A stretch of DNA of 64,000 nucleotides from Cytophagales bacterium (GCA_019456305.1 VRUD01000001.1:9717-73716); one strand, 5' to 3'. Numbered from the stretch's first letter, positions 2,228 to 55,975 are shown. Numbers and translations: made by a program. Notes: generated by a model from the sequence alone, not told the origin.

Positions 2228-4333
2228 TTACAAACTTCTACCCAGATACTTCACAATCAAAAAAAGCATAACGAATCCTAATAAGTAATTAAAGTACCAT
2301 GGAATGCCCATATTCACAAACACCGCACAAACCAATAAGCTTACCACAGCCACAGTGATTGCATAAGGCAATTGCGTTCTCACATGATCTACATGATTAC
2401 AATTGGTTGCTAATGAGCTCAGGATGGTTGTGTCAGAAATGGGCGAGCAGTGGTCACCAAATACCGAACCGGCCAGCACTACGGAAATAACATTATAGAA
2501 TATCGGCATTGATTGCCCGGTTTCAAAACCACTTTGCTGGCATAATAGCCAGGTAGCGGGAAGCATCAAAGGGTATAAAATTGCCATCGTGCCCCAGCTT
2601 GATCCGGTTGAAAATGAGATCAGCGCTGCCAGGATAAAAACTACAGTGGGCATCCATACGGGAGAAATAGCACCGCTGAACAAGGAAGTAAGAAAATCGG
2701 CTGTATGCAGATCCCCGGTTATTTTTGCCAGCGACCATGCCAGGATCAGGATCAGTACTGCAGGAAGCATGGTTTTGAAACCAAATACTAATGTATCCAT
2801 TATTTTTCTTAGCGGCATGATCCTTTGAATGACGGTTAACAGAATGGCTAAAACGACACCTGATAATGACGCCCAGAGCAAAGCCACATAAGCATCAGCA
2901 TTGCCGATAATGATCCCGAGTTTCCTGAAAAATGCTACATCCTGTCCGTTGTTAAGATGGTAAAGGTTTTCCCATACATTCATAAAGGAATAATCCTGTA
3001 TGACAATTCCGGCCTCCAATAAATTATCAAAAGATTTGTGAGCGCCTGTAACCAAAAGCGCTGCTATTGTTACTAAGACTACTGATATAACGGGAATAAA
3101 TGCATTGTACCACTTTTGTTTTACACCCTCGACAGGGTCCAAATCTTTAAGTGATTCATTATTTTCGAATTTCGAATTTCGAGTTTCGAGTTTCGAGTTT
3201 CGAGTTTCGAATTTCGAATTTCGAGTTTCGAATTTCGAGTTTCGAATTTTGAGTTTCGTCCCGAGTACTCGGGATCGAATTTCAGCCTTATACATTGACC
3301 CGAAATCCTTTTTAAAGTATATCAAAAAGAACATAAATACCAGTGTGAAAATGGGATAGAAAGCATATTGCAGCGAATTCAAAAACATTGAATAAGCATT
3401 TTCATTGATCCTTAAGTTAACCGAAGCATCCTGGATATAACCAAGCTCAGCTCCGATCCAGGTGGTAATAAATGCGATAGCAGCTACAGGCGCTGCAGTA
3501 CTATCCACTATATAAGCAAGCTTTTCTCTGGATATCTTGAACTTATCTGTTACCGGGCGCATGGTGTTGCCAACGATAAGTGTATTGGCGTAATCGTCAA
3601 AGAAAATAGCAATGCCCAGAAACCAGGTAATAAATTGCGCACTTCTGGCAGACTTTGCGTATTTTGATAATTTGTCAACAACTCCTGCCATCCCTCCGTT
3701 TTTGGAAATGATCGCTACCATGCCGCCAATCAATGTTGAAAATAAAATTACCGACAAATGCCCTGTGTCCATCATTGCGTTAATGATATAATTATCAAGC
3801 ACGTTGTACATGGCTGGGATCCAGTTTTTAGGATGAAAGCCAAGTAATATAAGCGCTCCTGAAAATATACCCAGGAAAAGCGACACCAACACCTCTCTGA
3901 ATATCAGCGCCATGGCAATGGCAATAAGCGGAGGCAGAATGCTGAGCCAGGCAGGGATATGTCTGATTTTGAAAAATTTAGCTATTCCGGAGTCCGTGTC
4001 CTTTACCGTTATTTTCTTTGATCCGTCAATTATGACAGGTGCAATGCCCATCCCTTCTTTAAACAGGATGATCTTGTTTTTACCATCAAACTGAAATACA
4101 AATTTTCCTTTAATAGACCTGTCTCTGTTGTCGTTCCTGTCTAAAGCGGTTATTTTTACATCTACATTTTTCCTGAACACATATTCGGGCGCTTCTATTA
4201 CAAAGTTTTTGATCCTGAGGGCTTGGACAGAAATACTGTATGTATCTTTGTTTTGCCGGGTAATTTTGATATTTTGTGCACAGGTAAAAATTGAGCATAA
4301 TAACAGCAGGCTTATCAATTGTACCTTTTTCAT
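2228..4333 (-). CDS. NhaC-family Na+/H+ antiporter with an N-terminal extracytoplasmic domain
   Basis: Many TM segments plus the NhaC-type block YANTLIVGNTMRPVTDKFKISREKLAYIVDSTAAPVAA. Start is MKKVQLISLLLLCSIFTCAQ (4331-4333), or 12 nt upstream at 4345. The central loop carries a repeat insertion. Confidence 0.75.
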   Translation of the reverse strand: MKKVQLISLLLLCSIFTCAQNIKITRQNKDTYSISVQALRIKNFVIEAPEYVFRKNVDVKITALDRNDNRDRSIKGKFVFQFDGKNKIILFKEGMGIAPVIIDGSKKITVKDTDSGIAKFFKIRHIPAWLSILPPLIAIAMALIFREVLVSLFLGIFSGALILLGFHPKNWIPAMYNVLDNYIINAMMDTGHLSVILFSTLIGGMVAIISKNGGMAGVVDKLSKYAKSARSAQFITWFLGIAIFFDDYANTLIVGNTMRPVTDKFKISREKLAYIVDSTAAPVAAIAFITTWIGAELGYIQDASVNLRINENAYSMFLNSLQYAFYPIFTLVFMFFLIYFKKDFGSMYKAEIRSRVLGTKLKIRNSKFETRNSKFETRNSKLETRNSKFENNESLKDLDPVEGVKQKWYNAFIPVISVVLVTIAALLVTGAHKSFDNLLEAGIVIQDYSFMNVWENLYHLNNGQDVAFFRKLGIIIGNADAYVALLWASLSGVVLAILLTVIQRIMPLRKIMDTLVFGFKTMLPAVLILILAWSLAKITGDLHTADFLTSLFSGAISPVWMPTVVFILAALISFSTGSSWGTMAILYPLMLPATWLLCQQSGFETGQSMPIFYNVISVVLAGSVFGDHCSPISDTTILSSLATNCNHVDHVRTQLPYAITVAVVSLLVCAVFVNMGIPWYFNYLLGFVMLFLIVKYLGRSL
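3165..3285. repeat. Heptamer array (TCGAATT/TCGAGTT)n plus CCCGAGTACTCGGG core, inside the NhaC ORF
   Basis: About 13 tandem 7-mers at 3165-3258 followed by TCCCGAGTACTCGGGA at 3259-3274. On the - strand this translates as ..EIRSRVLGTKLKIRNSKFETRNSKFETRNSKLETRNSKFE.. with no stop codon. Confidence 0.85.
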
Positions 4334-4540
4334 ATTAAAAGTCATTTAATAATTTGGTGCGGGGTAAAATTATTCTTTTTTTGAAAGATTACTATATTAA
4401 TGTTGAGACAATTTACTACCTTTGATAGCTACATAAAAATAAGAGTTGGCAGCGGCAGCAGCAGGAGGCAGGACTGCCAACTGCCGCTGCCTACTGCTGC
4501 TTGTTTGTTTTGTTGTCATTTGTGTAGCTATTTTCCTACA

Positions 4541-7221: not shown

Positions 7222-7430
7222 GATTTAAAAATTATTATGGATGTTATTTTTTGGATAAAATTGATCGCTTTCTGGGCATTTGCTCTTGTTTTCTGTTTAT
7301 TATTTGCCCCGGAAGGTGATACACTTATATTTGGAAATAAGCTAAAACGTGGGACAGTAATTAAAATTATGTATTTATTCTTTTGGATTCTCTCAAGCTT
7401 GTTAATTCTTTGGGGCGTCATATAAATATA

Positions 7431-7742
7431 GTTGGCAATCGGCAATCGGCAGTCGGCAGTCCACAATCGACAGTCCACAGTCGGCAGTTGGCAGTTGGCA
7501 GTCCACAGTCCACAATCGGCAGTTGGCAGTCCATCCCGAGTACTCGGGAGCAGTCGGCAATTGTTTTTTGCCGACTGGGGACTGCCGACTGCCGATTGAT
7601 TAAGTTAAGTTTCTAAATCCAGTTGCCATATTGTTTTAATGGTTTGATTGTTATTTTCTTTTTTGTCGACTGTGGACTGCCGACTGCCGACTGATTTTTT
7701 TGCCGACTGGAGACTGTAGATTGCCGACTGCCGACTGCCAAC
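7431..7742. repeat. ~310-bp foldback built from GGCAGTC/GGCAGTT/CCACAGT heptamers around a CCCGAGTACTCGGG core
   Basis: 7431-7533 holds heptamers in GGCAGTY orientation and the core is at 7534-7549. 7570-7606 and 7664-7742 hold the complementary words (CCGACTG, GACTGCC). It lies between convergent genes. Confidence 0.8.
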
Positions 7743-7745
7743 TTT

Positions 7746-9296
7746 TTATTCACTTATTCCCTTTCCCGGGAGTGCAGCAATTATTCTATTGGCCATCTTC
7801 TGTATATTATCACCGATGATCCGTTGGATGTTATTTGAGTTTGAGTTATAGAAGATCTTTATTTTGCTGCCTGCAATTTGTTTGCCCTCCCTGTTATAAA
7901 TGGAGTAATGAACTATAAAATCCCGTTCATAATCCTGCCTCGTCCTGTCTAAACAATGCTCATAATTGGTATTTACTTCAAATTGAGTAACGAAGATATA
8001 ATATCCCAGGTCGTATTTTTTGTTGAAGTATTCAAAAAATTTAGGGTCTTTGATCTTTGCTCCAAAATATTTATTTTCAAACTTCATCTTGCCAAACCTG
8101 CCTGAAAAAGGAGATTCAGGGCTTTTTTTTAATTTTCTTTTCACTGTTTCGAGAGATACAGGCAAAGCCTTTTCTTTTGGAGGGGCATAATTATCTACAT
8201 AATCCGGTTCATTGACCAAATCCTGGTAATTATAAGTTAACGACCTGTATATTTTATTCAGATCAGTTACCGAATCTTCAATGGAGCCTCCCATAAGATG
8301 CACGGTTTCATAATCAGGGGACTGGATCATTGTATTTAAGTTTTTACGGAAAACCTGCCTTACTTTAGTTCTTGGAATACCAGATGCAGCAGCGATCTCA
8401 TCATCAGCATCGGAAAAATATAAATAAGGGTCAAAAGGTACGACTAAAACTTTTTTCTGGGTTCCGGGAACTGGGTTCTTGTCGGAGCGAAGCATAGATC
8501 CCCCCGAGTACTCGGGGGGGGTATTGGTTTCTGGGTACTGATCATCTATTCCCTCTATTTCCCCTTTTACTTCTATTTCCGTATTTACTTCTTTTTCCTC
8601 TATTTCCTCTACATCCTCTACTTCCTTTACTTCCTTTATTTCCTTTACTTTCTTCATATCTTCTTTTTTGCGTGACTTTATATATTCCTTTGCTAACACT
8701 TTTTCCACTGTTTCAACTTCACCCTTTGCCTTATATCCAACAATAAGTTTCTGGCCTGCTTTTATATGCAGGTCATTCAATCCCATTAATTGATCAAGAG
8801 ATATATTGTATTTTTTTGATAAACTCCAAAGGGTCTCTCCTGGTTTTACAATATGAATTATAGCTTCTTTGAATGTTTGTTTTTCTACCAGTATTGTAGG
8901 TTGATGTTCTCCGGTTTCCACGATATGTATGATAATACCTTTTTCAGAAATTCCGGATCTTTTGATGACATCAGGATGATATGGAATGTTGATGACCTGC
9001 CCTGTTTTCAAACCGTTTTCCAATGCAGGATTAATTTCCAGTAGCCCGGCAATGGGTACGCCATGTTTTGTAGAAATTCCATAGATGGTCTCACCGGCAG
9101 AAACCAGGTATATGAGATGGAGCTTGCCTTTGATCTTCTGGACACCGATCGAATCGCAGGAAGGATATGGGGAAATAGAGGAATAGGGAAATAAGGATTT
9201 CGAGTTTCGAGTTAAGGGTATAAGAGTATGTGTTATAGCAGAATAAACTATTGAACTAAAAAAAAACAATAGAAAAATAACAGAATTGTATTTCAT
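7746..9296 (-). CDS. LysM-domain protein (2 LysM) with an acidic KE-rich linker and an unknown C-terminal domain
   Basis: Two LysM-like blocks: YLVSAGETIYGISTKHGVPIAGLLEINPAL..GQVINIP and HIVKPGETLWSLSKKYNISLDQLMGLNDL..GQKLIV. It has an N-terminal signal sequence. Confidence 0.7.
   Translation of the reverse strand: MKYNSVIFLLFFFSSIVYSAITHTLIPLTRNSKSLFPYSSISPYPSCDSIGVQKIKGKLHLIYLVSAGETIYGISTKHGVPIAGLLEINPALENGLKTGQVINIPYHPDVIKRSGISEKGIIIHIVETGEHQPTILVEKQTFKEAIIHIVKPGETLWSLSKKYNISLDQLMGLNDLHIKAGQKLIVGYKAKGEVETVEKVLAKEYIKSRKKEDMKKVKEIKEVKEVEDVEEIEEKEVNTEIEVKGEIEGIDDQYPETNTPPEYSGGSMLRSDKNPVPGTQKKVLVVPFDPYLYFSDADDEIAAASGIPRTKVRQVFRKNLNTMIQSPDYETVHLMGGSIEDSVTDLNKIYRSLTYNYQDLVNEPDYVDNYAPPKEKALPVSLETVKRKLKKSPESPFSGRFGKMKFENKYFGAKIKDPKFFEYFNKKYDLGYYIFVTQFEVNTNYEHCLDRTRQDYERDFIVHYSIYNREGKQIAGSKIKIFYNSNSNNIQRIIGDNIQKMANRIIAALPGKGISE
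8500..8519. repeat. CCCCCCGAGTACTCGGGGGG palindrome inside the LysM ORF
   Basis: Perfect 20-bp palindrome, translated in frame as ..PPEYSGGS.. Confidence 0.8.
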
Positions 9297-12394: not shown

Positions 12395-13057
12395 ATGGAA
12401 ACTCAACAAAAACCCATAACGATTTACACAGAAGCCAACCCCAATCCAAACTCGCTGAAGTTTGTCGCTGATTTTATGTTGGCGCCTGAAGGCAGCAGCT
12501 TTGATTATCCCGATGTCAGCAGCGCTGCTGACGCACCATTGGCATTGGCGTTATTTCAGTTCCCGTTCGTAAGGCGTGTGTTTTTTGCATCCAATTTTGT
12601 TACCATCACAAAGGATGAGAATACAAGCTGGGAAGATATTGCTCCTTCGCTTAAAGATTTTATTAAGAGTTATCTTGAAGCAGGAAAGCCAATACCGCGC
12701 AGCAGCCCCCCTCTAACTCCCGGCCCACCTGAATCGGAGAAACGGGGAATCGGAGAAACGGAGAGAAGGAAAACGAAGCAATTCACCGATTCGGTAAGGA
12801 ATAGTGGAGGAGGGGCTCCTGATTCTGAAATAGTAAAGAAAATAAAGAATGTTTTAGAACAGTATGTCCGTCCTGCGGTTGAAATGGATGGCGGCAATAT
12901 TAGTTTTGACTCATTTCAGGATGGTGTTGTTAAGGTAAACCTGCAGGGCGCCTGCAGCGGCTGCCCTTCTTCTGCAATAACATTAAAGCAAGGGATAGAA
13001 AACCTTTTTAAACAGATGGTTCCGGAGGTGAAGGAAGTGGTGGCTGAGGGGGTTTGA
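12395..13057 (+). CDS. Nfu/NifU-like Fe-S cluster scaffold protein
   Basis: Nfu N-terminal domain (NPNSLKF...) and a C-terminal NifU domain with the CSGCPSS pair. The inter-domain linker carries a repeat insertion. Confidence 0.8.
   Translation: METQQKPITIYTEANPNPNSLKFVADFMLAPEGSSFDYPDVSSAADAPLALALFQFPFVRRVFFASNFVTITKDENTSWEDIAPSLKDFIKSYLEAGKPIPRSSPPLTPGPPESEKRGIGETERRKTKQFTDSVRNSGGGAPDSEIVKKIKNVLEQYVRPAVEMDGGNISFDSFQDGVVKVNLQGACSGCPSSAITLKQGIENLFKQMVPEVKEVVAEGV
12728..12807. repeat. CGGAGAAA-word hairpin element in frame in Nfu; homologous to 55450-55605
   Basis: CCTGAATCGGAGAAACGGGGAATCGGAGAAACGGAGAGAAGGAAAACGAAGCAATTCACCGATTCGGTAAGGAATAGTGG. It encodes PESEKRGIGETERRKTKQFTDSVRNSGG. Confidence 0.85.
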
Positions 13058-13345: not shown

Positions 13346-13603
13346 ATGAAATTAACATATGATCCCCGATATAATATCGCTTATATTTACTTCAAAGAAA
13401 AAAAAACAGAAGTTGAGTCTATAAAAATTAGTGATGAAGTAATAATAGATATTGATACTGATGGTAGTATATATGGTATTGAACTACTCAACGCTAATAA
13501 ACAATTATTACAAAATGGGGATAGGGGTAAAGTTCTTTTCGAGAATGAAGCTACAGGTGAAAAAAAAGAATTATCTATCCTGCCTTCAAAAATTTATTCC
13601 TAA
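13346..13603 (+). CDS. DUF2283-like small protein (putative antitoxin)
   Basis: MKLTYDPRYNIAYIYF...IIIDIDTDGSIYGIELLNA pattern. It starts 10 nt after the previous ORF. Confidence 0.6.
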   Translation: MKLTYDPRYNIAYIYFKEKKTEVESIKISDEVIIDIDTDGSIYGIELLNANKQLLQNGDRGKVLFENEATGEKKELSILPSKIYS

Positions 13604-13608
13604 GGTAC

Positions 13609-13715
13609 CTTCGGAAATTTCAGATGGAATATGGGAGGGAATTTCCGAAGTTTTCTTATTCCCAACACAAACTTCGGAAATCTCCTCCCTGCAGGCCACC
13701 TGAGATTTCCGAAGG
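13609..13715. repeat. Two tandem REP-like hairpins (CTTCGGAAAT stems)
   Basis: CTTCGGAAATT at 13609-13619 pairs with AATTTCCGAAG at 13640-13650. CTTCGGAAATCTC at 13672-13684 pairs with GAGATTTCCGAAG at 13702-13714. Confidence 0.75.
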
Positions 13716-13734
13716 TTTCCTGTCGAAACGTTTT

Positions 13735-13858
13735 TTTCTTTAACTTCTACCAAAAAATGAAAATGATTAGGCATCAGACAATATGACCATACATCCAGGT
13801 AATTTGAAAAATATTTATTACAAATACTTGTTTTTAAAAGAGATTTCTTACCTTTCAC
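13735..13858 (-). pseudogene. Relic of an IS200/RAYT-type Y1 (HUH) transposase
   Basis: ..YFSNYLDVWSYCLMPNHFHFLVEVKE.. contains the (C/V)xMPNHxHxL HUH block of REP-associated tyrosine transposases. The N-terminus and the catalytic-Tyr region are missing. Downstream in-frame codons are just the REP hairpins. Confidence 0.5.
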
Positions 13859-13882
13859 CCATTATTAACCTTCACTCCATTA

Positions 13883-13972
13883 GGGCATCTCTAAAAACTA
13901 CACCATACATTCCCCTCTATCAAGAGGGGCAAGGGGTGTGTTTTAAAAAATATGTAGTTTTTAGAGATGCCC
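13883..13972. mobile_element. 90-bp MITE-like element (copy 1), 20-bp perfect TIR GGGCATCTCTAAAAACTACA
   Basis: Identical at 90/90 positions to 49125-49214. It sits between the RAYT relic and the A2M start. Confidence 0.7.
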
Positions 13973-32641: not shown

Positions 32642-32806
32642 ATCAATTAATAAAAAAAGGTGTTCAGTCAGGTAAATTAACTTATAAGGGATATGGTGAA
32701 GAAAAACCGGTTGTGCCCAACGATACAAAAGAAAAACGGCAGCTTAACAGGAGGGTGGAGTTTGAAATTTTAAATTAAAAAGGTTTTCGTGGTGTCGGGT
32801 GTTTCC
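32642..32806. repeat. 165-bp direct repeat, copy 2
   Basis: See 31701-31865. Confidence 0.9.
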
Positions 32807-32852
32807 TTGTAGAGACGTTGCATGCAACGTCTCTACAAGGAAACACCCGACA
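32793..32852. repeat. 60-bp perfect palindrome (nested hairpin elements)
   Basis: TGTCGGGTGTTTCCTTGTAGAGACGTTGCA|TGCAACGTCTCTACAAGGAAACACCCGACA is an exact reverse complement. It is followed by TCAGGTGGAAACACCTGA at 32859-32876. Confidence 0.9.
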
Positions 32853-32893
32853 TCCCTATCAGGTGGAAACACCTGACAGCACTGTATTAAAAA

Positions 32894-38123: not shown

Positions 38124-39002
38124 ATGGAATTAAAAATCAATAATCTATCAAAAACTTATCCGAATGGTGTAGAGGCGTTAAAAAATGTCTCCTTAACGAT
38201 TCCTACTGGCATGTTTGGTTTACTTGGGCCGAATGGCGCAGGTAAATCAACCTTAATGCGCATCATTGCTACTTTACAGCAAGCAGATACGGGTTCTGTT
38301 TATCTTGATGATCTAAACGTATTGGACCAAAAGGATGAAGTTAGAAAATTATTGGGATATCTACCGCAGGAATTTGGCTTGTACCCAAAAGTAACTGCTG
38401 AAGGTTTGTTGAATCATTTTGCAGTATTAAAAGGTGTTTCTAATCCTAAAGAAAGAAAAGAAGTGATCCATGGTTTACTTCAATTAACCAATTTATATGA
38501 GGTGAGAAAGAAAAATCTGGGAACTTTTTCCGGAGGTATGAAACAACGGTTTGGTATTGCACAAGCACTTTTAGGCGACCCAAAGTTGATCATTGTAGAT
38601 GAACCTACGGCAGGGTTAGACCCTGCTGAGCGCATACGGTTTCATAACCTGCTGAGTGAAATCGGGGAAAATGTCATTGTTATACTTTCTACGCATATTG
38701 TGGATGATGTAAGTGATCTATGCAGCAGCATGGCAATCATTCATCTTGGAGAGGTGCTCTTAACCGGAAGCCCTTTGCAGCTTATGAATGATCTGAAAGG
38801 CAAAGTGTGGGAAAAAGTAATTGAGAAAGATCAGCTAAAAGCGTATAAGGATAAATTTAATGTTATCTCTGCCAGGTTGTTTGCCGGCAAGTCCCTGATC
38901 CATGTGTATAGTGAACAAAAACCGGATAAATCTTTTGAGACGGTACCACCTGAATTGGAAGATGTATATTTTTCTACTATTACAAAAGATATTCATGTTT
39001 AA
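38124..39002 (+). CDS. ABC transporter ATP-binding protein
   Basis: Walker A GPNGAGKST, signature FSGGMKQR, Walker B LIIVDEPTAGLD. Confidence 0.9.
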   Translation: MELKINNLSKTYPNGVEALKNVSLTIPTGMFGLLGPNGAGKSTLMRIIATLQQADTGSVYLDDLNVLDQKDEVRKLLGYLPQEFGLYPKVTAEGLLNHFAVLKGVSNPKERKEVIHGLLQLTNLYEVRKKNLGTFSGGMKQRFGIAQALLGDPKLIIVDEPTAGLDPAERIRFHNLLSEIGENVIVILSTHIVDDVSDLCSSMAIIHLGEVLLTGSPLQLMNDLKGKVWEKVIEKDQLKAYKDKFNVISARLFAGKSLIHVYSEQKPDKSFETVPPELEDVYFSTITKDIHV

Positions 39003-42000
39003 AGAAATTTTCTTTTTTGAACTTAAATACCGCTTCAAGCGCCCTGCCAATTACATATATTTTGGCATTTTCTTTTTGCTGACTTTCCTGGCAGTGAATG
39101 GAATGGCCGGGGGTTTCAAAGGAGTGGTCATCAGTGTTGGCAGCGGAGGCGGAGGGAAAGTACTGGCAAACTCACCATATCAAATTTATCTCCTGATAAC
39201 TCTTCTAAGTTATTTTGGCATTTTGGTGACTTCAGCCATTATGGGCAATCCTGTTTACAGGGATTTTGAACACCAAACGCATTCTTTATTCTATTCAAAA
39301 CCTATTTCTAAATTCGGATATTTAGCGGGCAGGTTTTTGGGTTCATTGGTAATTGCTTTTTTGGTTTTTTTAGGTCTTGGAATAGGGATTTTAACTGCTT
39401 CATGGATGCCGTGGTTAGACCAGGATTATATTGGTCCATTTTATGCAATGGCTTATGTGCAGCCCTATTTAGTTACAGTACTTCCCAACCTGATATTTAC
39501 AGGCGCTATCTTTTTTGCATTAGCCACGCTCACCAGGAATATTCTTTCTACTTATGTTGGAAGTGTTGTTTTCTTAGTCTTGTATTTTATGGGGCTCAGC
39601 CTTCTTTCTGACCTGGAAAATGAAACTATTGCAGCATTATTAGATCCATTTGGAGAAAGCGCTACCGGATTAGCAACAAAATATTGGACAGTAGCTGAAA
39701 AGAATACATTGATCATTCCATTTACCGGGCACTTATTTTTCAACAGAATTATCTGGTTAAGTGCCGGTGTATTGATCTTTGCTTTTGCATATAAAAAATT
39801 CAGCTTCTCTTATTTTATTTCAGAAAAGAGATCTAGGAAAAAATTGAAGCAGCAAACTTTAGAAACTGAAACAATAGATTGGGCAGGGAAATTTTTAATA
39901 CCACGAGCAACCAGGATATTTTCCTTTTCTACAAATTTAGTACAATATATTAAACTTACAGGGCAGGAATTAAAAGGAATTGTAAAGAACGTTTACTTTA
40001 TAGCCATACTATTTGCCGGTGTAGTGCTGATGTTTGTTAATGGAAGCCAGGTTGGAAAGTTTTATGGAACAACTACCTATCCCGTTACCTACCAGGTTAT
40101 TTCAATAATAAGCGGCTCTTTCGGCTTGTTTTTTCTTATTATTATTATCTTTTATGCCGGTGAATTGGTTTGGAGAGAACGTACAACCAAGATCAATCAG
40201 ATTTTTGATGCCCTACCCATCCCTAACTGGGTGCCGTTTAGTTCTAAATTAACTGCTTTGATCCTGCTTCAGGTCGTATTACTCTTAGTAGTAATGCTGT
40301 GTGGTTTAATCATCCAGGTATTTAAGGGGTATTATCATTTTGAGACCGGTCTATATGTAAAATCATTATTCGGATTACAATTTATAGAACTTGCCTTGCT
40401 TTGTGTATTAGCCATGCTGGTCCAGGTAATCGTAAATCATAAATATCTTGGACATTTTATCATGGTTGTATATTTTTTGGTGAGCATTTTTATGGCGCAA
40501 TTTGGTTGGGAACATAAACTATATGATTACGCTGATGATCCGGGATATACCTATTCTGATATGAATGGCTTTGGACATTTTATCTTGCCGATTGGGTGGT
40601 TTAAAATTTACTGGACGGCTTTTGCAGTATCATTAGCGATATTGTCTAACCTTTTCTGGGTACGGGGGTTGGAAACAAGCCTTAAATGGCGGACTCAACT
40701 TGCAAGAAGACAATTTGTTAAGCCCACAAAAATAGCTTTTATCTTAGCTTTATTGGTATTCTTTATTTCCGGTGGTTTTATTTTTTACAATACCAATATC
40801 TTAAATGAATATATGACCAGCAACGAAAGAGAAGAACTAAGTGTAGAATATGAAAAGCGATATAAAAAGTTTGAAAATTCACCACAACCGCGTATAACAG
40901 ATGTAAATGTCAACGTAGATATCTACCCACTTAGCAGAGATGTTGCATTTAAAGGACATTATATTTTAAAAAATAAAACCAACGAGGCTATTGATTCTAT
41001 CCATATTGATATAAATCGCAACATAACTATTAATGATATGTCTTTTGACAGGAATCATAAAATGGTTTTGGAAGATGAGAAGATAGGGTACTACATAGTT
41101 GAATTATCAAAACCATTATTGCCGGGTGAAAATGTAGTGCTTCAATTTGATTTAGCTTTCACTACGAAAGGGTTCAAAAATAGCGGCTCCAATACAAGTA
41201 TCGTTGAAAACGGGACATTTTTACATAGTAACAGCTATTTACCCGCTATTGGCTACAACGAAGGCGGAGAATTAAGTGATGATGATACCCGTAAAAAACA
41301 TGGCCTGAAACCTAAAGAACGTATGGCTTTAGTAAATGACAGCAATGCAAGGTTGAATAATTATATCTCACATGATGCTGATTGGATTACTTTTGAAGCT
41401 ACTATAAGTACCAGCCCGGATCAGATTGCTATAGCGCCTGGTTATTTACAACGTGAATGGACAGAGGGTAACAGAAGATACTTTCATTATAAAATGGACT
41501 GTAAAATTTTGAATTTTTATTCTTTCCTATCTGCAAGGTATGAAGTTATAAGAGATAGCTACGGCCCTACCAGCCCCCCTAACAGCCCCCCTAAATCCCC
41601 CCAAAGGGGGGCTGTTAGGGGGGCTATTGAAATTTATTACCATAAAGGACATGAATACAACCTGGATGCTATGGTAAAAGCTATTAAAAGATCTTTGGAT
41701 TATTATACAGAAAATTTCTCACCCTACCAGCATAAGCAAGTCAGGATACTGGAATTTCCCCGCTATGCTTCATTTGCACAATCATTTCCTAATACCATTC
41801 CTTATTCAGAAGCAATAGGTTTTATTGCACAGGTAGATGAGGATGATGAAGATGATATTGATTATCCCTTTTATGTTACAGCCCATGAAGTAGCGCACCA
41901 ATGGTGGGCTCACCAGGTGATAGGAGGGAATGTACAAGGCGCTACGGTGATGTCTGAAACCATGTCTCAATATTCAGCCTTGATGGTGATGGAAAAAGAG

Positions 42001-42732
42001 TTTGGAAAGGAAAAAATGAAGAAATTTCTTAAATATGAATTGGACAGATATTTAAGAGGTAGAAGTTTTGAACGAAAAAAGGAACTGCCGTTGATATTGG
42101 TAGAAGGACAGGGATATATTCATTATCAGAAAGGTGGGTTGGTAATGTACGCATTGCGTGATTACATAGGAGAGGATTCATTAAATGAAGCGTTAAGAAA
42201 ATATATCAAAGCAGTAGCTTATCAACAACCCCCATATACCAATTCACTGGAATTTTTAAGCTATATCAAATCAGCTACCCCCGATTCTCTGCAATATATA
42301 ATAAAGGATATGTTTGAAACGATTACCTTGTATGAAAACAAAACCAATGAAGCTGTACTTAAAAAACGCCCGGATGGTAAGTATGCTGTTAAGATTAAGG
42401 TAGCGTCTAAAAAGTTACGGGCTGACAGTTTGGGAAATGAAAAAGAGATCCCTGTTAACGACTGGATAGATATTGGGATATTTGGTAAATCCGAATTGAA
42501 AGCAGAGACGCCCAATTTGGACGTCTCTGCTTTCAATTCGGAAAAAAACTCTAATTCGGATAAATCCTCTATTGGTAAGCCTTTGTACCTGAAAAAACAT
42601 AAAATTAACCAGCCGGAAATGGAATTTGAAATTATTGTAGACGAGCTTCCCTGGAAAGCCGGCATAGATCCCTATAATAAATTAATTGACCGTGATTCGG
42701 GAGATAATGTAAAGAAGGTAGGGGCTGGTTGA
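38995..42732 (+). CDS. ABC-2-type permease fused to an M1-family zinc aminopeptidase domain
   Basis: The ATG at 38995 overlaps the ATPase stop (ATGTTTAA). About 12 TM segments run to roughly 40800. Then comes a peptidase domain with HEVAHQWW...E zinc site. Two hairpin insertions are carried in frame. Confidence 0.8.
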   Translation: MFKEIFFFELKYRFKRPANYIYFGIFFLLTFLAVNGMAGGFKGVVISVGSGGGGKVLANSPYQIYLLITLLSYFGILVTSAIMGNPVYRDFEHQTHSLFYSKPISKFGYLAGRFLGSLVIAFLVFLGLGIGILTASWMPWLDQDYIGPFYAMAYVQPYLVTVLPNLIFTGAIFFALATLTRNILSTYVGSVVFLVLYFMGLSLLSDLENETIAALLDPFGESATGLATKYWTVAEKNTLIIPFTGHLFFNRIIWLSAGVLIFAFAYKKFSFSYFISEKRSRKKLKQQTLETETIDWAGKFLIPRATRIFSFSTNLVQYIKLTGQELKGIVKNVYFIAILFAGVVLMFVNGSQVGKFYGTTTYPVTYQVISIISGSFGLFFLIIIIFYAGELVWRERTTKINQIFDALPIPNWVPFSSKLTALILLQVVLLLVVMLCGLIIQVFKGYYHFETGLYVKSLFGLQFIELALLCVLAMLVQVIVNHKYLGHFIMVVYFLVSIFMAQFGWEHKLYDYADDPGYTYSDMNGFGHFILPIGWFKIYWTAFAVSLAILSNLFWVRGLETSLKWRTQLARRQFVKPTKIAFILALLVFFISGGFIFYNTNILNEYMTSNEREELSVEYEKRYKKFENSPQPRITDVNVNVDIYPLSRDVAFKGHYILKNKTNEAIDSIHIDINRNITINDMSFDRNHKMVLEDEKIGYYIVELSKPLLPGENVVLQFDLAFTTKGFKNSGSNTSIVENGTFLHSNSYLPAIGYNEGGELSDDDTRKKHGLKPKERMALVNDSNARLNNYISHDADWITFEATISTSPDQIAIAPGYLQREWTEGNRRYFHYKMDCKILNFYSFLSARYEVIRDSYGPTSPPNSPPKSPQRGAVRGAIEIYYHKGHEYNLDAMVKAIKRSLDYYTENFSPYQHKQVRILEFPRYASFAQSFPNTIPYSEAIGFIAQVDEDDEDDIDYPFYVTAHEVAHQWWAHQVIGGNVQGATVMSETMSQYSALMVMEKEFGKEKMKKFLKYELDRYLRGRSFERKKELPLILVEGQGYIHYQKGGLVMYALRDYIGEDSLNEALRKYIKAVAYQQPPYTNSLEFLSYIKSATPDSLQYIIKDMFETITLYENKTNEAVLKKRPDGKYAVKIKVASKKLRADSLGNEKEIPVNDWIDIGIFGKSELKAETPNLDVSAFNSEKNSNSDKSSIGKPLYLKKHKINQPEMEFEIIVDELPWKAGIDPYNKLIDRDSGDNVKKVGAG
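41572..41625. repeat. 54-bp hairpin in frame in the M1 domain
   Basis: AGCCCCCCTAACAGCCCCCC (41572-41591) is the perfect reverse complement of GGGGGGCTGTTAGGGGGGCT (41606-41625). It encodes ..SPPNSPPKSPQRGAVRGA.. Confidence 0.9.
42491..42541. repeat. 51-bp hairpin (AGACG-CCCAATTTGG-CGTCT core family) in frame in the M1 domain
   Basis: CCGAATTGAAAGCAGAGACG (42491-42510) is the perfect reverse complement of 42522-42541, with loop CCCAATTTGGA. It encodes SELKAETPNLDVSAFNS. Confidence 0.9.
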
Positions 42733-46787: not shown

Positions 46788-47047
46788 AATAGTAAAATTA
46801 AATTCATGGCAAAAGTACTTCATCTCTCACAGAATATCAACCAAATTTATTTTATAAAAAAAACATCACTAAAAATTTGTATATTAAAAAACCATCCAAT
46901 ACCTTCGCCCGCAATTTTTGATCCACGCCTGTAGGCGCGGGATCAATATTTAATTTATTATTTAAACAAACACGGAACACGGAACGTACAGACGCCCAAA
47001 TTGGGCGTCTCAACATTCCTCAAATTCCTCAAAACAAATTAATTATC

Positions 47048-47587: not shown

Positions 47588-47610
47588 ATTTCTTCATAAA
47601 GGAATATAAT

Positions 47611-47652
47611 AAAAAAGCCCTGCTCCCGAGTACTCGGGACGGGGCTTTTTTT
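47611..47652 (+). terminator. Intrinsic-terminator-like hairpin with the CCCGAGTACTCGGG core in its loop
   Basis: AAAAAAGCCCTGC-TCCCGAGTACTCGGGA-CGGGGCTTTTTTT, 24 nt after the stop. Confidence 0.7.
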
Positions 47653-48104
47653 CAACTACATGAATGTTTTTTTAAAAGAATAAAAATCGTTAAATTTGAT
47701 TAGTACAATCAGAGTCTCCCGGAAATCCTAAATTCAAACATATTACTATCTTAAAAAGGGGACTCTGATGGGACTCCTTAAAAATATTAGAATATATTTT
47801 TCGCACACATCAGAGTCCCCTGTTCAGGTTTTTGGTATGACTGCCTGCAACGTGTAGGCTTTTCGAAAGGCAAGCAGGTACGAAGTTTGTATTGGCGGGA
47901 GACTCTGATGGGACTGAAATTTATTTTATAAAAAAACATCACTAAAAATTTGTATATTAAAAAACCATCCAATACCTTTGCCCGCAGTTTTTGATCCACG
48001 CCTGTAGGCGCGGGATAAATATTTAACTTATTATTTAAACAAACACGGAACGTACAGACGCCCAAATTGGGCGTCTCAACATTCCTCAAAACAAATTAAT
48101 TATC

Positions 48105-48950
48105 ATGAAAACAATTAAAAGATCTTTAGTGGTAATAGCCACTTGTTTATTGGTTTTAGCAGTTATGGAAAGTTGTAAAAAAACCGCAACACCAAAAAAG
48201 TTAGACGGTAAATGGAAAGCTACAAAAGGTACGAGTACTCGTACAAGTACACAAAAATTGACGTGGTTGGGGTGTACACCAAATGATTGCAGCAGTACCT
48301 CAACTACTACCGAAACTTTTGATGGTGCTACCTGGACGGGTACAATGACATCTTCGAGTACTGATGGGAATGGAATTGTCACACCTAATCCGGACGTACC
48401 CATTGATGATAAGGAAACCATGTCTTTATCTTTTGATAAAAAGAACGGTACCTTTGAGCAATCATTTGTAGGGACTAATACTTATAAAAATCCTTATTGG
48501 AGCAATGTATATGATGATACTACCGCAGCTCCTCTATATAATGGTGGCGCTCTGGATCGAAAAGATGTTACTTCATCAACCGGAACGATGAAAGGAGATT
48601 TTCAGGTTACGGGAGGACTTGGTGATACTGATAAGAAATCTCAGTTTATTCTTTTTGGGACATCATGGACTGATAATTGGACTTCAACTTATTCCTACTT
48701 CCTGACTGGTACTGATAGTTCTGTTAATGTTACGAATTTGTATGTCCAAGATTGGCCTAATTATATTAAAGTGCCAACATCTGAATCAGGTACAGATGGT
48801 TCAATCGGAGAATCAAGTGATGGAGATGTATGGACTGTAACAGAGAACAAAAAAGGTACAATGACAATGAACCAAACTGAAAGTTCTACTAATTCAGATG
48901 GAAGCAACACCTCTTCTTATACCGAGGAATTAACTCTGGAAAAGGAATAA
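48105..48950 (+). CDS. Thr/Ser-rich lipoprotein (paralog family A)
   Basis: Lipobox ..AVMESC|KKTATPKK and LDGKWKAT motif. 281 aa. It shares 5' and 3' flanks with 47048-47587. Confidence 0.6.
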   Translation: MKTIKRSLVVIATCLLVLAVMESCKKTATPKKLDGKWKATKGTSTRTSTQKLTWLGCTPNDCSSTSTTTETFDGATWTGTMTSSSTDGNGIVTPNPDVPIDDKETMSLSFDKKNGTFEQSFVGTNTYKNPYWSNVYDDTTAAPLYNGGALDRKDVTSSTGTMKGDFQVTGGLGDTDKKSQFILFGTSWTDNWTSTYSYFLTGTDSSVNVTNLYVQDWPNYIKVPTSESGTDGSIGESSDGDVWTVTENKKGTMTMNQTESSTNSDGSNTSSYTEELTLEKE

Positions 48951-49026
48951 TATCAGTTTTAGTTGATAAAATAGTGTAGTAGAGGCTATTTTTGAGAGTT
49001 TAAAAAATTGTTGTACTTATTTATAT

Positions 49027-49066
49027 AAAAAGCCCTGATCCCGGGTATTCGGGAGGGGCTTTTTTT
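49027..49066 (+). terminator. Terminator-like hairpin with core variant CCCGGGTATTCGGG
   Basis: AAAAAGCCCTGA-TCCCGGGTATTCGGGA-GGGGCTTTTTTT. Confidence 0.65.
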
Positions 49067-49124
49067 CAACTACATGAATGTTTTTTTAAAAGAATAAAAA
49101 TCGTTAAATTAGTAATTACCTTTT

Positions 49125-49214
49125 GGGCATCTCTAAAAACTACACCATACATTCCCCTCTATCAAGAGGGGCAAGGGGTGTGTTTTAAAAAATATGTAGT
49201 TTTTAGAGATGCCC
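49125..49214. mobile_element. 90-bp MITE-like element (copy 2) with a 12-bp target-site duplication
   Basis: Identical to 13883-13972. It is flanked by TAATTACCTTTT at 49113-49124 and 49215-49226. Confidence 0.8.
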
Positions 49215-49693
49215 TAATTACCTTTTTTAAAAAACACCCCCATCCCCAGCCTGAACACAAACGCATTTGATAGAACATAATAGTCTGCATTTGCCTCAAC
49301 AGCCCAGTGATCGTTAAGCATAAAATCATTTCCCAGACCGAATGAAACATCAAAACTACTTCCCTTTAGTGGGGCTTTTACCAAATAATAACCTTTACTT
49401 CTTAAAAAAAAGGTTTCAGAAAAATATAACCTTAGACCGAGCGCTGCAGCGCTTCTGCTTAAAGAATTAAAATACTCAAAACCCCCGGATAAGGCGAATT
49501 TATCAGCAGCAAAGTAGTTAAGGTCAAATCCAAAGCCAACGCTTTTACCAAAATTCTTGAATGGCTTTTTGTTGTTTGTATTGTATAGATTAACCCCACC
49601 GTTTAGCAGAAAATCTCCCTGGTAAGGTTGGGCATTTGCTGTTAAAACACAACTCATTGCCGCTACAAAGACAGAAAATTTGAATGCTTTCAT
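49214..49693 (-). CDS. Small outer-membrane beta-barrel protein
   Basis: Signal peptide MKAFKFSVFVAAMSCVLTANA|Q followed by alternating beta-strand pattern. 159 aa. Its stop codon TAG is formed at the MITE junction. Confidence 0.65.
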   Translation of the reverse strand: MKAFKFSVFVAAMSCVLTANAQPYQGDFLLNGGVNLYNTNNKKPFKNFGKSVGFGFDLNYFAADKFALSGGFEYFNSLSRSAAALGLRLYFSETFFLRSKGYYLVKAPLKGSSFDVSFGLGNDFMLNDHWAVEANADYYVLSNAFVFRLGMGVFFKKGN

Positions 49694-54817: not shown

Positions 54818-55975
54818 TTACAAGCCATACCTTCTTTTTAATTCATCACACGTCCATCTTATGGTGTCATTGATGTCTCTGAAATTCAAGCCTTCTTTTC
54901 CGTTAGACAGGCTTAATAAATTCCTTATCTTTCCATTATTGTAATGCAATGAATTTAAAGATGATTTTACAATATCTTTAGTGACCAAGGGCGGCTTTCC
55001 TGTGAAAAGAGATCTTATTATTTCAAATCTCCATGCAATACCACCCCAAAATGGTGATACCATGATATTGGGTTTTCTTTTATCAAAATTCAGCGCAATA
55101 ATATCAAATAATTCCTTATAAGATATTTTACCGGCAAAAATTAAGTACCTTTCATTATTTATCCCGGTATTGATCAACTGCAGCGTGATTTCAGCCAGAT
55201 CCCTCACATCAATATAATGCACCTCCCGGGTAGTATAAAAAGGATATTGTTTCCATACATATTGAAATATTTTTGAACTGCCTTTTTTCCAATTACCAGG
55301 ACCTAATACCACTGCCGGGTTTAATATAACGGCATTGAGTCCTTCTTCTATGCCTCGCCATACTTCCATTTCCGCAAGATATTTTGTTTGGGCGTATAAT
55401 GACACTTCTTCATAGACTGAAAATTGGATTTTTTCATTAATACCAGCCTTCCCCCCACTATTCCTTACCGAATCGGTGAATGGGTGAATCGGTGAATCGG
55501 TGAATTGCTTCGTTTTTCTTCTCTCCGTTTCTCCGATTCCCCGTTTCTCCGTTTCAGGAGGGCTGGTGTGGCTGCCGCTTATTCCCCGTTTCTCCGATTC
55601 AGGGAGGCTGGTAGGTTTGCCTATTGCCGCAACCGAACTTAAATGACAAAGTTTTTTTACACCTTTTTTGATACATACATTTACAATATTTGAGGTACCC
55701 TCTACATTTGTTTTGAATATTAATTTCTTGTCATGGTAAGATAATGAAACCATGGCAGCCGTATGGATAACCGTATCAACGCCTTCAATACTTTTTTCTA
55801 AACCCGTAATATCAAGTATATCTCCTTCTATCCACTCGATTTTATCAGCAATATCAGCAACGAGAGACAGATCGCTCGTTTTTCTTTTTAAAGCGCGCAG
55901 GCGATTGCCTTGCTGTAGTAATTTTCTGGCTATAAAACTCCCTACCAAACCAGTGCAGCCGGTGATGAAAAACAT
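54818..55975 (-). CDS. NAD-dependent epimerase/dehydratase (SDR) family protein
   Basis: GCTGLVG Rossmann motif at the N-terminus and a YAQTK catalytic Y..K. An insertion of about 50 aa lies between SSVAAIG and the YxxxK region. Confidence 0.8.
   Translation of the reverse strand: MFFITGCTGLVGSFIARKLLQQGNRLRALKRKTSDLSLVADIADKIEWIEGDILDITGLEKSIEGVDTVIHTAAMVSLSYHDKKLIFKTNVEGTSNIVNVCIKKGVKKLCHLSSVAAIGKPTSLPESEKRGISGSHTSPPETEKRGIGETERRKTKQFTDSPIHPFTDSVRNSGGKAGINEKIQFSVYEEVSLYAQTKYLAEMEVWRGIEEGLNAVILNPAVVLGPGNWKKGSSKIFQYVWKQYPFYTTREVHYIDVRDLAEITLQLINTGINNERYLIFAGKISYKELFDIIALNFDKRKPNIMVSPFWGGIAWRFEIIRSLFTGKPPLVTKDIVKSSLNSLHYNNGKIRNLLSLSNGKEGLNFRDINDTIRWTCDELKRRYGL
55450..55605. repeat. Expanded copy of the CGGAGAAA-word element, in frame in the epimerase
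   Basis: Its rc contains CCTGAATCGGAGAAACGGGGAAT...CGGAGAAACGGAGAGAAGAAAAACGAAGCAATTCACCGATTC..GGTAAGGAATAGTGG. It encodes ..PESEKRGISGSHTSPPETEKRGIGETERRKTKQFTDSPIHPFTDSVRNSGG.. Confidence 0.85.

Follow-up and report, generated by a model that had tools for sequence, protein, structure and literature searches.

Two unrelated enzymes encoded on a 64,000-nucleotide (nt) stretch of Cytophagales bacterium DNA (GCA_019456305.1, VRUD01000001.1:9717-73716; the whole stretch is hereafter called the window, with positions counted from its first letter) share ~100 nt of near-identical DNA. The locus raises the question of whether the shared segment is a protein module used by both enzymes or a DNA element that entered both genes. 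One host is an Nfu/NifU-family Fe-S scaffold protein of 220 residues, encoded by an intact open reading frame (ORF) at 12395-13057 on the plus strand. The other is an extended SDR protein of the NAD-dependent epimerase/dehydratase family, with 385 residues and an intact ORF at 54818-55975 on the minus strand. The segment is probably one copy of a dispersed DNA repeat that is short and non-autonomous (136-nt consensus, 111-nt short form), descends from an imperfect-palindrome master and was inserted at many sites of the genome, with genic copies persisting only in the open frame.

The shared segment and its two copies in the window

The Nfu and SDR copies are 95.7% identical over 70 nt, followed by a 27-nt tail at 100% identity (BLAST). 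A repeat finder reported the same relationship as two arms, 12720-12792 and 55494-55566 (73 nt, 95% complementary), that is, one sequence on opposite strands. The host genes lie on opposite strands, and relative to each coding strand the copies have one orientation and one reading frame. The near-identical element, the common peptide and this arrangement of strands are all as described in the initial annotation of the locus. Chance is excluded as the source of the similarity: two sub-strings of 20 and 23 nt were counted against the expectation from shuffled sequence, and GAATCGGAGAAACGGGGAAT gave six matches at up to three mismatches (0.01 expected) and AAAACGAAGCAATTCACCGATTC two exact matches (0 expected). 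Pfam places Nfu_N at residues 10-97 and NifU at residues 150-216 of the Nfu protein, which corresponds to NCBI entry MBW8048749.1 apart from one extra N-terminal residue in the latter. The SDR protein matches Epimerase and related Pfam families and is the same as MBW8048787.1.

The initial annotation delimited the Nfu copy as 12728-12807. An element does lie there, but it is wider, as a profile made from eight copies matches the gene from model position 1 to 135 over 12704-12814 (103.5 bits). This copy (12704-12815, plus strand), the short form of ~111 nt, occupies the Nfu_N/NifU interdomain linker according to the profile match and the alignment with homologues, encodes SPPLTPGPPESEKRGIGETERRKTKQFTDSVRNSGGG and has complementary ends, AGCCCCCC...GGGGCT. 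Its left arm (12731-12775, plus strand) is a series of tandem 8-nt units, GAATCGGA GAAACGGG GAATCGGA GAAACGGA and so on, for which Tandem Repeats Finder gives 5.8 copies at period 8 and 1.9 copies, at 100%, at period 16. The right arm (12781-12795, plus strand), ATTCACCGATTCGG, comprises ~1.5 units and pairs with the left-arm GAATCGG, as judged from sequence and folding.

The SDR copy (55447-55612, minus strand) is a long form with a duplicated left end and is situated between SSVAAIG and the YAQTK catalytic motif, as placed by alignment, PDB and profile. Compared with homologues, the insert comprises 52 residues (124-175, encoded at 55451-55606), and the profile matches 55449-55566 at 130 bits, with a partial second left end at 55581-55614. 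Both words that had been described as extra in this copy are real and can now be defined. The extra GAATCGGAGAAACGGGG unit reflects the left end of the element having been duplicated in tandem (45 nt, 15 codons), so that GGCA..CCAGCC.CCTGAAWCGGAGAAACGGGGAAT is present twice within 55536-55621 on the minus strand (direct-repeat family D19; 55536-55576 and 55581-55621, 83%). The extra CACCGATTCACC is the 24 nt, or three 8-nt units and eight codons, by which the SDR right arm exceeds that of the short Nfu form. The SDR right arm (55470-55505, minus strand) has 4.5 tandem units, ATTCACCG/ATTCACCC on the coding strand (Tandem Repeats Finder, period 8, 92%). The GC content of the element is 51-53% versus 37.8% for the window. 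A Pfam search of the host proteins found no family covering the insert, and an Rfam scan of the window gave no match at the element.

Insertion into both host proteins

All 17 aligned Nfu homologues (190-216 residues, 59-65% identical) lack 25-27 residues at the site of the element, and all ten of the more distant SDR homologues (322-333 residues) lack the 52 residues between SSVAAIG and YAQTK. The insert-free state that the initial annotation looked for thus exists for both families at the protein level. PDB entry 3wj7 aligns to SDR residues 3-135 and 183-354 on adjacent residues of its chain and is therefore contiguous across the site, a loop that precedes the catalytic YxxxK helix. The insertion is clean in both proteins, and these homologues and 3wj7 dispose of the alternative that the segment is an ancient linker.

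In the AlphaFold model of the SDR protein, the Rossmann core is confident and residues 116-178 have predicted local distance difference test (pLDDT) values below 50 (24-38 for residues ~120-180), with the insert between the strand 108-112 and the helix 193-210. The encoded peptide, rich in Pro, Glu, Lys and Arg, is probably disordered, as this model would suggest. An intein or a self-splicing intron was rejected, as the host proteins have no Pfam intein/Hint domain and the window has no Rfam intron family. The SDR protein has a further 7-residue insertion (..SLSNGKEG..) near its C-terminus, at residues ~355-362 (window ~54890-54915), which the four close SDR relatives share and other homologues lack.

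Copies in further genes and in a sister genome

The two copies first noticed belong to a larger set. An exhaustive phmmer search with the 40-residue Nfu segment against 1.84 billion representative proteins yielded ten matches at E <= 0.001; an earlier word-index peptide search with the 58-residue SDR insert had given no match. Matches from the same metagenome-assembled genome (MAG) include an inositol monophosphatase (IMPase; MBW8051480), an aspartate kinase (MBW8049986), a SAM_HAT protein (MBW8050079) and a biotin carboxylase annotated as 'hypothetical' (MBW8051427). An ABC ATPase, a small lipoprotein and a 57-residue ORF were matched in a sister MAG (GCA_022567835.1), and one further match is a PAS-domain protein from JGI. 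The DNA of the host genes confirms full-length copies in each gene, with two in the aspartokinase gene (BLAST and profile search).

Thus, the element is dispersed among unrelated genes. The ~114 kb examined of this genome (the FVQ77 MAG) holds seven copies in six unrelated enzymes, 90-96% alike, which share their non-repetitive ends and apex as well as the arms. All genic copies are in the single frame common to Nfu and SDR, and the host genes are intact. In the biotin carboxylase, 42 residues are inserted between residues 278 and 279 of the PDB chain (query 1-278 and 321-498 versus chain 1-278 and 279-461). The IMPase has an insert of ~52 residues between chain residues 113 and 115 (query 12-114 and 167-307 versus chain 16-113 and 115-254), and the aspartokinase shows two gaps against its PDB homologue, which are the two inserts. 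The insertion sites appear to be structurally permissive linkers and loops, where the secondary-structure context of the biotin carboxylase, IMPase and aspartokinase sites is deduced from the alignments.

The 57-residue ORF of the sister MAG is a spurious gene call over an intergenic copy, which is antisense to a CHU_C-domain gene and situated just 3' of that gene's stop codon. Peptide search and DNA profile together added four enzymes and the sister-MAG copies, and the intergenic location is seen only in the sister MAG. Metagenome contigs scanned at the DNA level for the right end of the element gave no matches, in a collection that is incomplete for this lineage, as the JGI contigs L006 and L007 carry the pattern. 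A scan of genome contigs for ACGAAGCAATTCACCGATTC returned two matches (Gemmatimonadaceae and Rhodococcus, one per contig), the chance level for a 20-mer in a collection that apparently does not hold the source genome. Viral contigs gave no match to the specific core and one to the generic octamer pattern; they show no sign of a phage vector.

Consensus structure and folding

The 136-nt consensus of eight copies, AGCCCCCCTCTAACTCCAAGCCCCCCTGAATCGGAGAAACGGGGAATCGGAGAAACGGAGAGAAGGAAAACGAAGCGATTCACCGATTCACCGATTCACCCATTCACCGATTCGGTAAGGAATAGTGGCGGGAGGG, encodes the peptide SPPLTPSPPESEKRGIGETERRKTKRFTDSPIHPFTDSVRNSGGR. It has stop codons in five of the six reading frames and is open in one. The consensus is an imperfect palindrome. 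With DNA parameters, its positions 4-132 form one stem-loop (-25.9 kcal/mol); both arms consist of tandem 8-mers, (GAAWCGGN)n on the left and (ATTCACCS)n on the right, with an A-rich apex between them. In the Nfu, biotin carboxylase, L133, IMPase and AK1 copies the two termini, AGCCCCCC...GGGGGGCT, are complementary to each other. The copies also have in common the non-repetitive parts AGCCCCCCTCTAACTCCAAGCCCCCCTGAA, GAGAGAAGGAAAACGAAGCGATTC and GGTAAGGAATAGTGGCGGGAGGG.

All copies share two helices. In long copies the fold is better than in shuffled sequences, with z values of -2.5 to -5.9 (SDR, -4.5 to -4.8), the exception being the decayed AK1 copy (z = -0.2). The complementarity of the hairpin arms proposed in the initial annotation stands insofar as the helix GAATCGG.GAA / TTC.CCGATTC is kept in seven to eight of the eight copies, but the hairpin is imperfect, and the Nfu copy by itself folds no better than shuffles (z = +0.5 and -0.8 in two runs).

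Propagation as DNA and persistence in one frame

Variable sites among the copies number 15, 12 and 13 at codon positions 1, 2 and 3 (of 46, 45 and 45 positions, respectively). There is no codon-position bias and no sign of selection on the peptide among the copies. Because the codon positions vary evenly, the GC content is high, an intergenic copy exists and the consensus is palindromic, the unit that was propagated is DNA rather than a protein module. Together with the at least seven copies in six enzymes, these observations bear out the view, already put forward in the initial annotation, of a mobile DNA element rather than a protein domain.

The initial annotation had also drawn on the shared orientation and frame. 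These carry no independent weight: five of the six frames of the consensus contain stop codons, and selection alone suffices to produce the pattern. For the same reason, the shared frame was rejected as evidence of targeted insertion. Genic copies survive in one orientation and frame only, because only in that frame is the sequence open.

Change at the SDR site and the contribution of gene conversion

Three SDR orthologues (L005-L007; 88-91% protein identity) all carry an insert at the site used in the window. The ends of these inserts are conserved and their interior differs by multiples of three nt. The right arm differs by 24 nt, the apex may carry additional small hairpins amounting to 24 or 36 nt, and a CCCGAGTACTCGGG palindrome may be nested in the element (+6 nt); the window copy has the 45-nt left-end duplication, which is not found in the inserts of L005-L007. 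The insert is thus hypervariable at one orthologous site.

The pattern at this site leads to the alternative that fares best. It holds that the Nfu and SDR copies are nearly identical mainly because pre-existing copies underwent gene conversion or repeatedly replaced one another, and not because of recent insertion, the SDR insertion being old and homogenised to the current master. As the main cause this is possible but doubtful, and it would complement dispersal. The SDR insert occupies one site in four lineages and therefore predates their split. The centre of the window SDR copy is nearer to the other copies of the window (Nfu, 95.7%) than to its own orthologues with their 24-36 extra apex nt, and CCCGAGTACTCGGG is nested at an equal left-arm position in two genes of the sister MAG (L005 and L133). 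As far as can be judged from these sequences, the nested palindrome and the likeness of the SDR centre suggest gene conversion or replacement among copies. Gene conversion, however, cannot make the first copy at a new locus, and the seven loci in unrelated genes still need insertion. Moreover, the comparison of within-genome with orthologous similarity lacks, for L006 and L007, other copies from those genomes.

Alternative explanations

A cis-acting DNA or RNA structure selected within genes, such as a terminator or attenuator, an mRNA stability element or a translational pause, is improbable. The hairpin potential of the long copies, the position of the intergenic copy immediately after a stop codon and the terminator-like contexts of other palindromes of this genome (AAAAAGCCC...GGGGCTTTTTT) would be in keeping with such a role. 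No T-run follows the element, however, its stem pairs decay with no compensatory changes, short copies barely fold and Rfam gives no match; a terminator within essential enzyme genes would also be harmful.

A functional protein module, for instance an interaction motif, a degron or a flexible linker, that was recruited into several enzymes and maintained through selection on its peptide is less probable still, and indeed very unlikely. The even spread of variable sites over codon positions speaks against it, as do the hypervariable peptide at the orthologous SDR site, the predicted disorder of the insert, the absence of a Pfam family on it and the existence of an intergenic antisense copy. The palindromic consensus and foreign GC content fit a DNA element. 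The in-frame location of all genic copies in intact host genes and the persistence of the SDR insert across four lineages would be expected of such a module, but the single open frame accounts for the frame without any function.

Independent local expansion of simple 8-nt repeats, a microsatellite-like convergence with no dispersal, has hardly any probability left. Such expansion could account for arms made of tandem 8-mers of changing copy number and for the similar 8-mer arrays of many unrelated metagenome contigs, but not for the non-repetitive parts AGCCCCCCTCTAACTCCAAGCCCCCCTGAA, GAGAGAAGGAAAACGAAGCGATTC and GGTAAGGAATAGTGGCGGGAGGG that the copies share, nor for full-length profile matches (1-135) that are confined to this lineage, while unrelated contigs match ~27-113 only.

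Both genes with their inserts are present in the NCBI MAG 'Cytophagales bacterium' (MBW8048749.1 and MBW8048787.1; 110,598-bp contig). They recur in an ENA assembly of sample SAMN11268109 that is independent of it; this sample is among the metagenomes that Zhao et al. 2020 (PMC7768721) obtained from subseafloor sediment. In the ENA assembly they lie in the interior of two separate scaffolds. A chimeric assembly or contamination, the other alternative named in the initial annotation, can be dismissed with near certainty, since it has no positive support beyond the fact that repeats of this kind do break assemblies, and since the element is inside intact genes and away from contig ends in two independent assemblies, the SAM_HAT copy is seen again in a second sample, the SDR insert recurs at the identical site in three related assemblies and the reading frames are kept everywhere.

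Proposed mechanism and its weak points

In the favoured account, that of a dispersed DNA repeat, new copies would arise by transposition-like insertion, probably of the hairpin in single-stranded DNA by an enzyme acting in trans. Genic copies would be tolerated only where ~37-52 extra residues fit, such as interdomain linkers, β-turns and surface loops, with the encoded peptide carried as a passenger. After insertion, genic copies would keep changing in multiples of three nt: the 8-nt arms may gain or lose three units (24 nt) by slippage, the ends of the element may be duplicated (45 nt), and other small genomic palindromes such as CCCGAGTACTCGGG may nest in an arm or the apex (+6, +24 or +36 nt). 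Gene conversion between copies may help to keep them alike.

Several observations weigh against this account. No transposase or other mobilising gene was found in the ~114 kb examined. Inspection of eight junctions revealed no consistent target-site duplication; TACC/TTACC at the second copy in aspartokinase is the one possible case. Among the close relatives there is no empty site at the DNA level, as all three close SDR orthologues recovered carry the insert. The short copies (Nfu, L132 and L007) fold no better than shuffles, and the copies show no covariation (covariation term +1.17, one of 17 pairs compensated), with decay of stem pairs. In addition, the count of genic copies is biased, since four loci were found by peptide search, and it refers to the ~114 kb of DNA mentioned.

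The only candidate mobiliser in the window is a Y1_Tnp (IS200/RAYT-like) fragment at 13586-13858 on the minus strand, which scores 16.6 bits against a cut-off of 23; a REP-associated tyrosine transposase (RAYT) was rejected as the mobiliser on account of this sub-threshold score. The fragment adjoins a 96-nt repeat with 20-nt inverted ends (13877-13972) that recurs at 49119-49214, 35 kb away, at 98%.

Relation to known repeats

Selfish palindromic DNA in essential enzymes is, to our knowledge, documented at large scale mainly in Rickettsia, where it is generally linked to selection being relaxed in an intracellular lifestyle. Rickettsia palindromic elements (RPE; Ogata et al. 2000) are summarised in PMC10969869 and PMC3184786 as palindromic repeats of 105-146 bp with many in-frame copies in unrelated metabolic genes. 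These summaries further describe a conserved passenger peptide that the fold of the host protein accommodates, other copies that are intergenic and a transposase that is not known. By that description, the present element resembles RPE in size, palindromic structure, in-frame copies in unrelated enzymes, passenger peptide, intergenic copy and location in loops and linkers. The corresponding features here are a palindromic consensus within ~100-150 bp, seven in-frame copies in six enzymes and permissive sites. In contrast to RPE, whose host is an obligate intracellular alphaproteobacterium, the element resides in an uncultured, free-living-type member of the Cytophagales (Bacteroidota) from marine sediment, its arms consist of 8-nt tandem units that expand and contract, and small palindromes nest inside it. 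By analogy, the element appears to behave like RPE, though it belongs to a different phylum and is built differently; the resemblance is one of behaviour rather than membership of the RPE family, and a relationship by sequence would not be expected. The phenomenon is of a known kind; the phylum and the modular architecture are new.

The case outside Rickettsia is comparable in that a Bacteroidota genome from subseafloor sediment holds at least seven in-frame copies, two of them in one aspartokinase gene, and it offers one orthologous site that can be compared across four lineages and at which the insert changes by frame-preserving steps. It bears on how proteins gain disordered loop insertions and on how the sequence of a repeat, with one open frame and 8-nt units changing in threes, filters its persistence in genes.

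Transposable elements of the miniature inverted-repeat type (MITEs) with intragenic in-frame copies (ERIC, BOX/RUP and Anabaena MITEs) are reviewed in PMC10969869 and PMC3184786. The element is likewise small, non-autonomous and multi-copy, with complementary ends and occasional in-frame fusion to an ORF. It differs in that the whole element, and not just its ends, is an imperfect palindrome, and in that the 114 kb contain no parent insertion sequence with matching ends. Of the two hallmarks of MITEs, terminal inverted repeats are present, whereas target-site duplications are absent from the eight junctions.

Repetitive extragenic palindromic (REP) sequences and the hairpins that they form (REPINs) are described in PMC3733652 as hairpin repeats with GTAG- or CGTC-tagged palindromes that are moved by RAYT (Y1) transposases. 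In line with that description, the present repeats form hairpins and leave no target duplication, the weak Y1_Tnp fragment and the Nfu copy are 0.8 kb apart, and another palindrome family of the window, GAGACG...CGTCTC, holds the CGTC motif. REPs, however, are 20-40 bp long and extragenic, while the element measures 111-136 nt, is mostly genic and has ends without GTAG or CGTC, and the 114 kb contain no intact RAYT. Membership of the REP/REPIN-RAYT system was rejected, as size, tag and genic location all disagree and the Y1_Tnp match is below threshold. Nesting is reportedly also a property of the very small dispersed repeats of cyanobacteria that Elhai et al. are said to have described in 2008 as lying within other repeats. 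The likeness is to the nested CCCGAGTACTCGGG and the 24-36 nt apex inserts; phylum and sequences are different.

Heptamer short tandemly repeated repetitive sequences (STRR; TAACTGA) occur in Cyanobacteria, Beggiatoaceae and Bacteroidetes with a patchy distribution and no mechanism (MacGregor 2015, PMC4679880). Like the element, they are built from short tandem units, 7 nt long as against 8 nt in the element, that run through Bacteroidetes and other genomes, a few of them in ORFs, but they are mostly direct intergenic arrays upstream of start codons (PMC4679880), whereas the element has two complementary arrays and unique ends and lies inside enzymes.

Octamer-arm hairpins in other lineages

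A scan of metagenome contigs for GAAWCGGAGAAMCGGGKAAT gave 121 matches in 119 contigs (L008-L126) with GC fractions of 0.38-0.68. Arrays of at least three units account for 105 of the 121, and in 36 at least two complementary units start within 120 nt. The element itself has the arrangement by which such octamer hairpins are defined, a left GAAWCGGN array of at least three units with a complementary right array nearby. Its profile matches the hairpins of unrelated contigs over the core only (~27-113; dozens of contigs at 20-48 bits) and is matched over its full length only in the Cytophagales lineage. In one unrelated contig (L115, 52% GC), two octamer arrays lie in frame in an AsnB-type amidotransferase gene. 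The octamer strings turned up in none of the papers searched, and no published definition of such a class was found. A link of the arrays to four-helix-bundle genes (23S rRNA intervening-sequence-protein-like) was discarded, as it holds at only six of the 119 loci.

It may be proposed, very tentatively and with more doubt than confidence, that the element core is a member of an undescribed class of hairpins with arms (CGGNGAAW)n / (WTTCNCCG)n, present in many bacterial lineages, which would be generated or moved by a shared mechanism that acts on hairpins, would nest in the arms and apices of older hairpins and would repeatedly colonise coding sequence, the AsnB-type gene of L115 being one independent case. 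If so, the Cytophagales family would be a lineage-specific derivative with unique ends, and the same process would also make the heptamer- and 12-mer-array hairpins of the window. Whether octamer-arm hairpins form a wider, unstudied class of repeats is a question on which the element bears.

Other repeats of the window

The window holds many further hairpin and array repeats, several of them within ORFs. The 14-nt palindrome CCCGAGTACTCGGG has ten sites at up to two mismatches versus 0.02 expected, located by pattern scan at 184, 3260, 7535, 8503, 11914, 23269, 44290, 47625, 49040 and 56024. Its contexts include the apex of a heptamer-array hairpin (7430-7598), terminator-like AAAAAGCCC..GGGGCTTTTTT and, in frame, a LysM gene (8503-8516). 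Within a Na+/H+ antiporter gene (ORF 2228-4345, minus strand), positions 3163-3273 comprise 13 tandem heptamers (TTTCGAR) followed by CCCGAGTACTCGGG, in frame and encoding ..SRVLGTKLKIRNSKFETRNSKFETRNSKLETRNSKFE...

A FAD-dependent monooxygenase gene (Pfam FAD_binding_3; ORF 56090-57571, minus strand) contains a near-perfect in-frame hairpin of 53 nt at 56810-56862 with the peptide ..RQVFGRDDQIGRLYQTPDT... In this hairpin a GAGACG..CGTCTC palindrome sits within a GTGTCAGGTG..CACCTGACAC palindrome, and relatives occur at 42490-42542, 46976-47024, 48042-48090 and 32791-32854. Hairpins with 12-nt units, (CAGCCCCCCTAA)n ... (TTAGGGGGGCTG)n, are found within ORFs at 41571-41626 (ORF 38902-42732, plus strand), in L129 (10417-10520 and 11786-11890) and in L130 (~8070). 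Similarity of sequence between the 12-nt unit and the extreme ends of the element, AGCCCCCCTCTAA ... ATTTAGGGGGGGCT, suggests that the element may itself be nested in a 12-nt-unit hairpin.

Repeats fragment assemblies of this genome, and such elements bear on how repeats break assemblies and mislead annotation. The ENA scaffold that carries the SDR gene (L004) stops at another repeat, near window position 49000 (region ~47600-49220). Segments of the window are duplicated in this area, 47641-47696 being identical to 49055-49110 (100%) and 46844-46978 matching 47917-48051 at 93%. Homology-guided annotation, too, is apparently upset by the inserts. In the NCBI calls, three genes that carry them are shortened at the N-terminus relative to the ENA calls (232 versus 320 residues for P0243/P0251, 307 versus 561 for P0244/P0252 and 318 versus 533 for P0247/P0253), and one of the three shortened calls is named 'hypothetical protein'. 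The sole Rfam match in the window is a DUF805b RNA motif at 132-168 on the minus strand (41.6 bits).

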